Position numbers and translations under genes: made by a program. A DNA stretch of 62,643 nucleotides, filler included, from Stramenopiles sp. TOSAG23-2 (lineage: Eukaryota): the NCBI GenBank assembly GCA_900128395.1. It is 39 parts of 39 records of this genome, joined end to end, with 100 filler letters (N's around TTAATTAATTAA, not from the genome) between each part and the next. Parts side by side here need not be neighbours in the genome. Positions count along the whole stretch, not along the records: positions 41,967 to 43,467 come from LT652774.1; positions 43,568 to 45,068 come from LT652775.1; positions 45,169 to 46,668 come from LT652776.1; 36 more parts are not named here. One strand, 5' to 3'. Below, piece by piece: positions 42,950-45,732 of this stretch (its first letter is position 1; each line of letters begins with the position of its first letter). The notes under the pieces were generated by a model. The model had not been told where the DNA came from, did no database searches, and worked only from the letters and a program-made list of their open reading frames with translations.

Positions 42950-43568
42950 ATTCAAGCTGAAATATTTTAATATTTTTAATTATTTTATTATGTTTTTTCA
43001 TGTACGTTTCAATATTTTATATTTATGGAGGACAAATGCACCCTTTAAACAAAATTTCATCTCCAGAAATAATTGCTGGGTTGCCTGCCTGGCCTGGAAA
43101 AAAGCTTCTTTCGGAGACGAACCAAAAAAAAATGCTACGAGATCTACTTTAACTTTTCCCGTTATGGTAGTCTAAGAAATTATTTATATAACATATAGTA
43201 AGAGAAAAACACATATATAATATATATATAATACTAAATAAAAAGAATAATTTTTGTGCGCTTTTTAAAAATTATAAAAAGAGTTTTCCAAATATGATAT
43301 TTCATACTTTTAGAAAGTTCTCATTATTTTTAAACACGCACGCAACTCTCTCTCGCGCACTTTTTCAAAAAAAAAGACAAAACACACACACACCGCTTTT
43401 TACAATTTACTATTCCCTTCGTTTGCTTTTTCAAATCCACATATTAATCGTACAGCAATATTTGGAANNNNNNNNNNNNNNNNNNNNNNNNNNNNNNNNN
43501 NNNNNNNNNNNTTAATTAATTAANNNNNNNNNNNNNNNNNNNNNNNNNNNNNNNNNNNNNNNNNNNNG

Positions 43569-44159
43569 CCATATCCTCCATCAGAAGTAAATGGGTTAGA
43601 AATTGACTGGTTAAAAAAAAGAAAATTATTTGTAAATCCACCATTTAGTCAAGATGTGTTATGGCTAAAAAAATGTCACGAGACGTACTTACGTGCAAAA
43701 GAGTTAAACGAACCGCTGCACATTGTAGCTCTCATTCCGATGAAATCGCCCAAAAAGTTAGAGGAGTATATTGAGCAAGAATATATTATAAAAAAACCCA
43801 TCCATGGGCGATTAAAATTTATTGACTTAACAGGAAAACGAAAAACAGTCAATTGATTCAATAAAGATTGTTGGTTTATTCATTACAAATATGATCCTGT
43901 ACAAGTAATTAATGACAGTGCATCGGATAGTAGTAGTGAAGATGAGGAACAAGAAGTTGAAATACCTGATTTTAAAACCTTAGCACTTGAACGAGAACAA
44001 CGATATGGAGTTAAGAAAGATGCTAGTGCAATGGCGAATAATAACAACAACAATAACATTGTAATGTACAATGACATTAATAAAAAGAAAAAGAAAAGTG
44101 CACGTGCAAAACGTGCAGAGTGGAGAAAAAAGGGTAAAGGATATAAATTAAATGAATAA
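43569..44159 (+). pseudogene. Phage-type DNA N6-adenine methyltransferase (Dam, PF05869-like), 5' truncated, with an in-frame TGA
   Basis: NGLEIDW..LFVNPPFS..WLKK..IVALIP..GRLKF, with NPPF at 43635-43646. TGA at 43854-43856 is followed by 100 further open codons to TAA at 44157-44159. Confidence 0.8.
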
Positions 44160-44179
44160 ATTAAAATTATTTTAATTTA
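44157..44179. terminator. AT-rich hairpin spanning the stop codons of two convergent genes
   Basis: taaattaaaa-tta-ttttaattta: 10-bp perfect stem whose outer bases are both TAA stops. Confidence 0.5.
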
Positions 44180-44493
44180 GTTATTTTTATTGGACTCCTC
44201 AATTTTTTTACCAACTTGACGTTCACTCATAAATATGTCGGCATAATCTTCACGAAAACGTATCACGTAGTACCTTTTCATTCTGCCAGTGCCCTTGGCA
44301 ATAACATCTGCAACGTTACCATTAATTTCAACAGTTTGATTAATTTTATCGTCTCCTTTAGGAACCTCAACCTCATATGATTTAACCACTCTTAATTTTT
44401 TTCTGCCTTTCTTAACCACCGTCTCAATTTCAATATATCTGGATATACGTTGCCTTCTTTCTCCAGTTCATAAAATCTTTGATAATATTTCAT
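44177..44493 (-). CDS. Small hypothetical protein, probably frameshifted at an A-run
   Basis: The ATG at 44493 gives MKYYQRFYELEK..WLRKAEKN-stop. One extra A near 44400 would join it to LRVVKSYEVEV..SNKNN. Confidence 0.45.
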
Positions 44494-44572
44494 TGACTTT
44501 TTAAGAAATTAAGAAATAATATAAAAATTTGATTAATAATTATTTAAAAATATCTTATTAATATAATATATT

Positions 44573-44830
44573 ATGAGCTATACCTGCCCGAACCCTGAGT
44601 GCAAAATCAAAACATTCACCCATAAGAGTGTATATGAACGCCATTTAAAAACTAATTGTGGCAAACCTAAAGAGCCTACTGTTTGTGACATATGTGGAAA
44701 ATGTTTCAAATATCCTTCCAAATTACAGGAGCATTTAAATAACAAAAAGAAGTGCTCGCCGCCTGTAGATATAAGAAAAGATTTACGTATAGAGAGACTC
44801 AAATTGAGATTAAAATCTTTGAAATATTAA
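44573..44830 (+). CDS. Small double zinc-finger protein (C2H2/C2HC)
   Basis: CPNPEC..F.....ERHLKTNC and CDICGKCF.YPSKLQEHLNNKKKC. Confidence 0.8.
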   Translation: MSYTCPNPECKIKTFTHKSVYERHLKTNCGKPKEPTVCDICGKCFKYPSKLQEHLNNKKKCSPPVDIRKDLRIERLKLRLKSLKY

Positions 44831-45732
44831 AGGGGAAAACTTCCCTTCCCTTCCCTAATTGCATTGAGATTATTATATATTAGGCAATTCTTCAGATATC
44901 GCCACATAAGCTCCGAGTCATAATGCTAGTTTAATGTTAATTTTTTTTCATTAAAATTGCCACAAAGTTTGTCACTTGATCATTTTTTTTGATCTTAATT
45001 TATTTGTTGATTATCTTCTGTCAATTGTCTTTGGTGGGGCTTTAATATTGTTGTATACGACAACAAGTNNNNNNNNNNNNNNNNNNNNNNNNNNNNNNNN
45101 NNNNNNNNNNNNTTAATTAATTAANNNNNNNNNNNNNNNNNNNNNNNNNNNNNNNNNNNNNNNNNNNNGAGTAAATTAAAAATAAATTATGCGTAAATTA
45201 AATTATATTTTGGACTTCTCATATACGCTTCGTATATTTTTTTACTTTACTATCATAATCATATCATACGTACTATCATCTCATACTATGAATATGTCTA
45301 ATTATTATTACCTTTTCTTATGATATTGTACAGGTATTATATTTACTGTATAGCCTCATCATTATTATACCAGGTACTACAGAAAATTTATTGATATAAG
45401 TGAGTTCAGTGAGATACGTGCATACGTCCTTGTAGTTTAAGTTCGGATATTTCCCCCCTTCGATTTCAATTATGTTAAAAATGGGAAAAAGGAGATCATA
45501 AAATATATTTACCTCCAGCATAATATATATATTCTAAAAACATAGTACATGTAATAAATAATGAATGATGAAAGATAAGGAAACAAACACTTATATACAT
45601 ATAACATCTTGTATCAAGAATATCATTGATTAGTCATTATATTATATTATATTATATTATATATATATATATATGTAAGAGAAAAAGAAGAAACAAAGAG
45701 AGGAAAAAAGAAGTATCATATATGAAATAAGA

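Follow-up and report, generated by a model that had tools for sequence, protein, structure and literature searches.

Does a short scaffold in the assembly of Stramenopiles sp. TOSAG23-2 (GCA_900128395.1), which carries a gene for a phage-type adenine methyltransferase, derive from a virus-like element of a eukaryote, and could the enzyme that it encodes still be active? The scaffold occupies positions 43568-45068 of the stretch of DNA analysed here (the window; 62,643 bases), which consists of 39 separate scaffolds of 1495-1526 bp each, sorted by length and divided by N...TTAATTAATTAA...N spacers; since the scaffolds are joined only by these spacers, genes of the window that face each other across a spacer are unlinked. 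An earlier note had described the scaffold as a cassette of three packed, intronless genes, namely the methyltransferase gene (gene 1), an orphan gene (gene 2) and a zinc finger gene (gene 3), and had read it as a viral fragment bringing a writer of N6-methyladenine (6mA) into a protist cell. Here we report that gene 1, judged from profile and motif comparisons, is a divergent member of the Dam adenine methyltransferase family PF05869, that an in-frame TGA has most likely inactivated this copy, and that the scaffold, on balance, probably comes from a free or integrated virus-like DNA element of a eukaryote.

Gene 1 and its family

Gene 1 lies on the plus strand in a frame that runs from 43569 to a TAA stop at 44157-44159 and reads PYPPSEVNGLEIDWLKKRKLFVNPPFS..W.KK..LIP..GRLKFIDL. 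The scaffold and the features of the gene are as follows (P numbers denote protein relatives of gene 1, described below).

43568-45068, no strand: complete scaffold under study, 1501 bp, GC 0.312, flanked by two spacers
43569-43853, plus strand: gene 1 before the in-frame stop, Dam-like adenine methyltransferase, 95 codons; Pfam PF05869 E 4.7e-6, 26.8 bits for this piece alone
43635-43646, plus strand: NPPF, the catalytic (D/N)PP(Y/F) motif, from the sequence
43854-43856, plus strand: in-frame TGA, codon 96; Asp in P0001, Asn in P0002, Ser, Ala or Gly in most other relatives
43857-44159, plus strand: gene 1 after the TGA, with the last strand of the fold FNKDCWFIHYKYDP, followed by a Ser/Asp/Glu-rich acidic stretch, seven Asn in a row (Asn7) and an end rich in Lys and Arg; homology from BLASTP

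Because the edge of the scaffold falls within gene 1, the start codon and about 35 N-terminal residues are missing, and with them the stretch where the W.TP and DPC motifs of the family are expected. A contig from sequencing run X3, identical over 43569-43644, continues upstream as ..DKYKDYFDPC before PYPPSE; this is the DPC motif of the family, and gene 1 therefore continues beyond the edge.

The motif string of gene 1 and the fingers of gene 3 are present as the earlier note had described them, and its assignment of gene 1 to the PF05869 family stands. When read through the TGA, gene 1 matches PF05869 over residues 5-104, a range that spans the TGA, with an E-value of 3.7e-6 and 27.1 bits (gathering cut-off 28.1, with about 35 N-terminal residues missing), and the relatives P0001, P0003 and P0009 score above that cut-off, at 44.7, 66.4 and 51.4 bits. 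PHROG 111 (DNA methyltransferase) matches gene 1 as well (E 4.1e-6). In an alignment of 19 rows (A5) the Asn column of the motif is kept in at least 90% and both Pro columns in 19 of 19, and comparison by hhalign of a profile of the near clade (A6) with one of classical members (A7) gave a probability of 99.8% and an E-value of 5.3e-30 over 116 aligned columns. The expected strands and helices are present in an AlphaFold2 (AF2) model of P0001, an intact relative, with a predicted local distance difference test score (pLDDT) of 87.3. A sequence search of the PDB found no close solved relative (best E 0.47), and the Foldseek matches are weak and are all methyltransferases dependent on S-adenosylmethionine (SAM), the best being PCIF1 (6irx; probability 0.99, TMq 0.59), with T4 Dam (1yf3) at E 0.064.

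The in-frame TGA

Homology continues in frame beyond the TGA. The segment that follows it, FNKDCWFIHYKYDPVQVI (FNKDCW..), matches P0002 (BLASTP E 3e-7), and the tail of gene 1 (..LALEREQRYGV..MANNNNNNN..KKKKK..WRKKGKG) matches that of P0012 (BLASTP E 2e-6, 33/63 identical), so the ancestral gene read through position 43854-43856; a Pfam scan of the 43857-44159 piece returned no family. The post-TGA segment maps to E128-138, the last strand of the sheet in the AF2 model of P0001, and on that model the single TGA would halt translation 11 residues short of the end of the fold, with loss of the last core beta-strand and of the basic tail, which resembles a nuclear localization signal (NLS).

The same TGA stands in contigs of X1, X2 (record 6) and X3 (record 14), no run shows an indel anywhere, and the codon is therefore not an assembly error. 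Very few sites (listed: 44193, 44474, 44686) distinguish these data sets from the window, so that retention of the TGA reflects one lineage and not selection. Among the 44 open reading frames (ORFs) of at least 120 codons on the scaffolds of the window, 17 end in TAA, nine in TGA and seven in TAG, while 11 run off the scaffold end; with TGA closing 9 of the 33 that end in a stop, it serves as a stop codon in this organism, and the copy of gene 1 is accordingly most likely broken. Read in this way, gene 1 would most likely be an inactive pseudogene, or at best yield a low-level read-through product, and a genuine TGA ahead of the last core strand weakens the proposal that the scaffold supplies a protist cell with a 6mA writer. 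Recoding of TGA as Trp, or use of a mitochondrial code, was considered and rejected on the same stop codon counts and on the aligned column, which holds Asp, Asn, Ser, Ala or Gly.

That the TGA is nevertheless decoded, either by programmed read-through or in a true host of the element that recodes TGA, and that a full-length, tailed and active methylase is made, strikes us as quite improbable. The homology kept over the last strand and the tail speaks for decoding, as does the presence of the TGA in three data sets, but these are near-identical and share it by common descent. An RNA-library contig covers part of gene 1 and would also fit; this 235-nt contig, from the seawater RNA library X18, matches 43575-43809 exactly, but ends upstream of the TGA. 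Against decoding stand, besides the nine TGA-terminated ORFs, an aligned column that in the relatives holds the residues just named and not Trp or Cys, four Trp codons in gene 1 that are all TGG, the use of TAA as the stop of all three genes, and a T directly after the TGA, which is not known to be a leaky context.

Occurrence in other data sets

Parts of the scaffold sequence are present in 20 of 24 listed sequencing-run rows, from 14 studies. Contigs were compared for X1 (possibly the source data set itself), X2, X3 (a marine metagenome) and X18, and in the other 16 matching rows the share of the stretch is 0.05-0.33. None of the contigs compared extends beyond 45068. The X18 contig hints at transcription of gene 1, DNA carry-over being possible. 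The segment 44470-44523, which comprises the first codons of gene 2 and part of the spacer beside them, is matched at 85% or more by X2 and X3 contigs with a depth of 113-120 versus 6.9, or 16-17 times that of the scaffold, and with unlike sequence thereafter, and a methylase of the P0001 type reaches a depth of 119 in X2 against 6.9 for the scaffold, or about 17 times as much. Together, these deep contigs suggest an abundant marine relative of the element. It is odd that, with a stop and a frame break in two of its three genes, the scaffold recurs almost without change in several samples and also in an RNA library.

Relatives and phylogeny of gene 1

A word-based homologue search with the methylase produced 96 candidates, none of which scored, and a full HMMER scan of 1.84 billion representative proteins identified 24 relatives at E <= 0.001, the best of them being P0001 (142 aa, 51%, E 4.9e-28) and P0002 (1386 aa, 50%, E 3.4e-25). 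The nearest relatives, at about 50% identity, are metagenome proteins, some of which are fused into long multidomain proteins; P0002, for example, combines the methylase with a GT25 glycosyltransferase domain and other parts. In Pfam scans of the relatives (8 proteins at E <= 0.01 and 16 at E <= 0.001), a Dam match was found in 19 of the 24 and a reverse transcriptase or integrase match in none. The ends of P0002 and P0012 had looked chromo- or Tudor-like by eye; as whole-protein Pfam scans (E <= 0.01) returned no such domain, this was set aside.

The genomic context of the relatives is that of short contigs: those of P0001 and its 11 cluster mates measure 0.6-1.2 kb, that of P0002 4.6 kb and that of P0012 6.9 kb. 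A scan of JGI metagenome contigs with the methylase found five loci. Two of these, L081 and L082 (50-52% identity, GC 29-30%), contain small ORFs packed 30-45 nt apart, and a third, L083 (7.4 kb, methylase 47% identical), has five further ORFs, none of which exceeds a Pfam cut-off or matches a PHROG; no viral hallmark from Pfam or PHROG was found on L081, L082 or L083. A 363-aa ORF of L083, modelled with AF2 without an alignment as a check for a capsid fold, gave an unusable model (pLDDT 32.2). Among 18 neighbour ORFs of the relatives three match a PHROG, two of endonuclease type and one of unknown function, and none a structural one. Searches of 50,697 GenBank phage records by tblastn yielded a single match for gene 1, at E 0.6, and none for P0002; scans of IMG/VR with P0002 and P0012 gave no relatives, and the 80 IMG/VR loci that carry family members are mostly ordinary viral contigs.

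In a quick tree of 87 rows, from which only loci with identical protein sequences had been dropped, gene 1 falls within a clade of seven rows (approximate likelihood-ratio support, SH-aLRT, 96) with P0001, L081, L082 and domains of P0002, P0012 and P0017. Next outward are P0005 and then P0003, P0004, P0007, P0009, L083 and L001, and the bulk of the IMG/VR sequences occupies the other, poorly resolved half of the tree.

Origin of the scaffold

The element from which the scaffold probably derives could be a large DNA virus, a Polinton-like virus (PLV) or an integrated remnant of one, co-collected with an AT-rich marine protist or residing in its genome. Gene 1 would represent a eukaryote-associated side branch of the phage Dam family, the small SAM-dependent N6-adenine DNA methyltransferases; such an enzyme is expected to flip its target adenine into the NPPF pocket, and intact relatives may mark the DNA of the element itself or that of its host. 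In this copy, gene 2 is unreadable from its own ATG without a frame change or a tiny intron, and gene 3 is intact. The viral reading is made plausible by metagenome relatives on short, AT-rich, packed contigs, by their multidomain fusions and by the lack of a close relative among GenBank phages, and agrees with published viral DAM proteins. Features of eukaryote style are the C2H2-type finger and, in gene 1, the Ser-rich acidic stretch, the run of seven Asn and the tail rich in Lys; together with the points above they lean towards a virus or mobile element of a eukaryote.

Several results weigh against this origin. Gene 1 falls short of the PF05869 cut-off, as given above, and scores 23.8 bits with TIGR01712 (phage_N6A_met) against a curated cut-off of 97.05, where P0001 reaches 35.3 and P0003 50.4. 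A six-frame Pfam scan of the scaffold assigned a family to 2 of 19 pieces (Dam and zf-C2H2) and found no capsid, packaging ATPase, pPolB, recombinase or integrase, although a scaffold of 1.5 kb is too short for missing hallmarks to exclude viral membership. The other 38 scaffolds of the window show no match to the relatives or to the neighbour genes of the relatives. The capsid family of nucleocytoplasmic large DNA viruses (NCLDV) was found in none of the four larger IMG/VR records that carry family members, a test that says little since its controls were silent too. The sole contig named as a giant-virus bin, L064, lies outside the near clade, in the poorly resolved half of the tree, and Atlas look-alikes of the non-Dam (glycosyltransferase) part of P0002 belong to viral clusters whose commonest phylum label is Uroviricota (phages). 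Codon usage of the three genes (-0.967) falls between the extremes seen for 28 ORFs of the other scaffolds (-1.198 and -0.685), so that composition shows no sign of a foreign origin. The palindrome between the stops of genes 1 and 2 (described below) does not stand out when folded as RNA, with z of -1.17 and -0.97 and with 27/200 and 39/200 shuffles folding equally well. Finally, the X18 contig is more in keeping with an expressed gene than with a dead one.

A marine bacteriophage, co-sorted or ingested, is an unlikely source. On this explanation gene 1 would be an ordinary anti-restriction Dam, and the two frames of gene 2 would be overlapping small phage ORFs, 2a and 2b (ATG 44493, GTG 44419); the tight packing and a GTG-started ORF of 80 codons that needs no frame change would suit it, and PF05869, TIGR01712 and PHROG 111 are phage families, with most of the 80 IMG/VR family loci on ordinary viral contigs and the Uroviricota look-alikes of P0002 pointing the same way. 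Nothing close was found among GenBank phages, however, and no structural PHROG among the neighbour ORFs of the relatives, while the finger, the Asn7 run, the acidic Ser-rich stretch and the Lys-rich tail would be unusual in a phage and the codon usage matches that of the eukaryote scaffolds. Inspection by eye shows no purine-rich ribosome-binding site upstream of the ATGs, and the methylase is equally broken under translation table 11.

The codon usage, together with Asn runs like those of the host scaffolds, agrees with an origin among the protist's own nuclear genes, either as a horizontally acquired cellular DAM or as a decayed remnant of a DAM-carrying DIRS or long terminal repeat (LTR) retrotransposon, which we likewise hold to be doubtful. 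The nonsense codon and the break in frame are compatible with an insertion in decay, and a 26-nt GT..AG segment would mend gene 2. In a screen of eukaryote data sets, available as a preprint, 46% of eukaryotic DAM proteins have no detectable transposon features and are mostly degenerated remnants, and non-viral transfer groups are described, such as one of Haptophyta and Heterokonta (10.64898/2026.05.21.726589). Opposed to this are the absence of any reverse transcriptase or tyrosine recombinase remnant from every frame of the scaffold and from the 24 relatives (for the scaffold, at 1.5 kb, a weak argument), the position of the nearest relatives on short, tightly packed contigs of small ORFs, and the relative that is about 17 times deeper in X2, which fits a virus better than a paralogue. 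The viral reading of the earlier note is plausible from the relatives and from published viral DAMs, though no hallmark accompanies it on the scaffold and the one named giant-virus contig stands apart.

We attach very little credence to a more elaborate version of a viral or mobile-element origin, in which the near clade (gene 1, P0001, P0002, P0012 and P0017) would be an undescribed, eukaryote-adapted phage-Dam branch of viruses or elements of marine protists, with basic nuclear-targeting tails and with further domains in the relatives. A conserved in-frame UGA would there serve as a switch: termination would give a truncated product without activity, and read-through a full-length, nuclear writer of 6mA that acts on host chromatin.

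Should the scaffold be viral, it would represent a further uncultured lineage from the sea in which a virus or mobile element of a eukaryote has taken up an adenine methylase of phage type. 6mA marks transcribed chromatin in many protists, and the topic is active for that reason. The value of the scaffold is limited by a broken gene, a length of 1.5 kb and the lack of a link to a virus or a host chromosome, and DAMs of viruses and transposons in protists have already been published, so that it adds to a known kind.

Comparison with known systems

The phage methylases of PF05869 and TIGR01712 share the fold family of gene 1 (the hhalign probability of 99.8%), the small size (relatives of 140-160 aa) and the motif order DPC.., NPP(Y/F), GRLKF. 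Unlike them, the near clade has F(N/R)KDCW in place of the C-terminal APFPS, and gene 1 has an extra acidic, Asn- and Lys-rich tail, a TGA stop and scores below the cut-offs.

The screen cited above covered 880 eukaryote data sets and yielded 10,030 DAM proteins, the majority from DIRS and LTR retrotransposons; it describes two virus-associated DAM groups in protist genomes (giant viruses and adintoviruses) and three non-viral transfer groups, one of haptophytes with a heterokont, and reports that heterologous eukaryotic DAMs produced no 6mA in E. coli (10.64898/2026.05.21.726589). Like the giant-virus-like and adintovirus groups, which are interpreted as viral integrations, gene 1 is a Dam-type domain in a protist assembly outside a retrotransposon context, a likeness drawn by description only and with no viral gene linked on the scaffold. 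With the DAMs of DIRS and LTR retrotransposons it shares the Asn-Pro-Pro pocket, and many of those copies are degenerate; in contrast to them, neither the scaffold nor the 24 relatives hold a reverse transcriptase or tyrosine recombinase, and the relatives are stand-alone proteins of 140 aa or glycosyltransferase fusions.

PLVs and virophages often carry adenine methyltransferases, and some carry zinc finger genes (PMC9356565, PMC6459981). Small, prokaryote-derived methylases occur in the Tetraselmis PLV group G2 (PMC9356565) and in CpV-PLV Curly (PMC6459981), and resemble gene 1 in this respect, as the PLV zinc finger genes resemble gene 3; compared by description only, these viruses differ in carrying a capsid, an ATPase and often a partner restriction enzyme, none of which is on the 1.5-kb scaffold. 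Giant viruses carry many methyltransferases, some of them pseudogenised (PMC7253447). Mollivirus ml_498 and others resemble gene 1 as recently disabled genes whose remaining frame is recognisable, but belong to other methyltransferase families and to isolated viruses with methylomes, whereas the scaffold is known from its sequence alone (PMC7253447).

Genes 2 and 3, spacers and palindrome

The remaining features of the scaffold are the following.

44177-44419, minus strand: gene 2, long frame, an orphan of 80 codons that begins with GTG at 44419, lacks an ATG before codon 55 and stops at 44179-44177
44392-44493, minus strand: gene 2, short frame of 33 codons, opened by the ATG at 44493 and closed by the stop at 44394-44392, with an A7 run at its end (44396-44402)
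44423-44448, minus strand: candidate GT..AG intron of 26 nt, from the sequence; without it, the short frame would run on from codon 15 into the long frame, with a predicted product of 97 aa
44573-44830, plus strand: gene 3, with two C2HC-spaced fingers, 85 aa, stop at 44828-44830; Pfam zf-C2H2 E 9.4e-8
44494-44572, no strand: very AT-rich spacer of 79 nt between genes 2 and 3, presumed shared promoter region
44157-44179, no strand: perfect palindrome with arms of 11 and 11 nt and a loop of 1 nt, with the two stop codons, of gene 1 and gene 2, as its exact ends
44831-45068, no strand: 3' flank of 238 nt without any ORF of at least 40 codons that has a family match

The packing claimed in the earlier note is borne out, with 17 nt between the convergent stops of genes 1 and 2 (44159 to 44177) and 79 nt between the divergent ATGs of genes 2 and 3 (44493 and 44573). 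That all three genes are intronless was not shown, because gene 2 is not one open frame: the short frame is +1 relative to the long one, and the long frame lies at -1 from the ATG frame. The two could be joined by a -1 shift on the A run or by loss of 44423-44448, and the A7 run has no indels in the contigs that cover it (X1 and X2 only). Gene 2 matches no Pfam or PHROG family and has no relative among 5.8 billion proteins in a shared-word search, the best Atlas score, 0.84, being below use. An IMG/VR match in L086 (21 residues, E 1e-3 among candidates only), within a 502-aa protein that adjoins one of 2484 aa, was taken as chance.

Gene 3 is intact, and its two-finger product is predicted to bind DNA or RNA. 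Its fingers are spaced C-x4-C-x12-H-x4-C and C-x2-C-x12-HLNNKKKC, and two stretches match zf-C2H2 (PF00096; 32.5 bits, cut-off 25.2), the fourth ligand being Cys and not His (H-x4-C, H-x6-C). The only relative found is the metagenome protein P0048 (98% identical), and none was found in IMG/VR. The ORF at L083:4072-4743 opens with a finger of the form C-x2-C-x12-H-x7-C (zf-C2H2 E 0.0023, under the cut-off) and resembles gene 3 weakly (BLASTP E 0.034).

The Mimivirus and CroV promoter motifs AAAATTGA and AAAAATTGA are absent from the 44494-44572 spacer, and their sole exact copy lies within the coding part of gene 2. The spacer contains AAAAATTTGA and gives no support for a viral promoter. Perfect arms of 11 nt arise anywhere in 7 of 300 dinucleotide shuffles of the scaffold. 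Inverted repeats of 14 bp lie between a small upstream ORF and the methylase gene in L082:786-823 and L081:252-288; as RNA, that of L082 folds with z -3.62 (3/200 shuffles as good), and that of L081 (z -1.21) folds no better than shuffles. A 'hairpin rule' is described for mimivirids (PMC4402537), and we regard the hairpins near stops and genes as a lead only.

Other scaffolds of the window

The long ORFs of the other scaffolds are unbroken under the standard code, and 13 of the 35 that were scanned have a Pfam match at E <= 1e-5, to families that include Bystin, Nuf2, Ion_trans, ankyrin, Kelch, PIP5K, sulfatase and ABC_tran, which are ordinary eukaryote genes. A search of the window for tRNA genes found none. 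Tandem Repeats Finder gave 37 rows in the window and no array in the scaffold under study; the contrast that the earlier note had drawn with microsatellite-rich host scaffolds is nevertheless weak, as the arrays lie on a minority of the 39 scaffolds and the codon usage is host-like.

The scaffold at window positions 1-1526 matches its own reverse complement at 1522 of 1526 positions, as no other scaffold does, and is an inverted-duplication chimera such as whole-genome amplification produces. An unbroken ORF at 18119-19354 on the minus strand has overlapping matches to PIP5K at its C-terminal end (residues 36-140) and to a sulfatase domain from mid-profile (residues 56-297), and looks like a chimeric join of two genes. 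A perfect tandem duplication of 138 bp at 13962-14234 (2.0 copies, 100% match), which begins at the 3' end of an ORF, may be an artefact of assembly or amplification. For short stray scaffolds in amplified assemblies of single-cell type, read-level linkage is needed before a viral or endogenous reading is adopted.

On the neighbouring scaffold, an ORF at 42152-42946 (plus strand) ends with a SHOCT domain (PF09851, 29.4 bits, cut-off 27), a short domain that is mostly bacterial. Paralogous ankyrin-repeat genes are present on two scaffolds (5539-6453 and 22630-23808), with GSNGNNNN..LKEYVNQEG in common and the shared end ..IIDLIRSKG.

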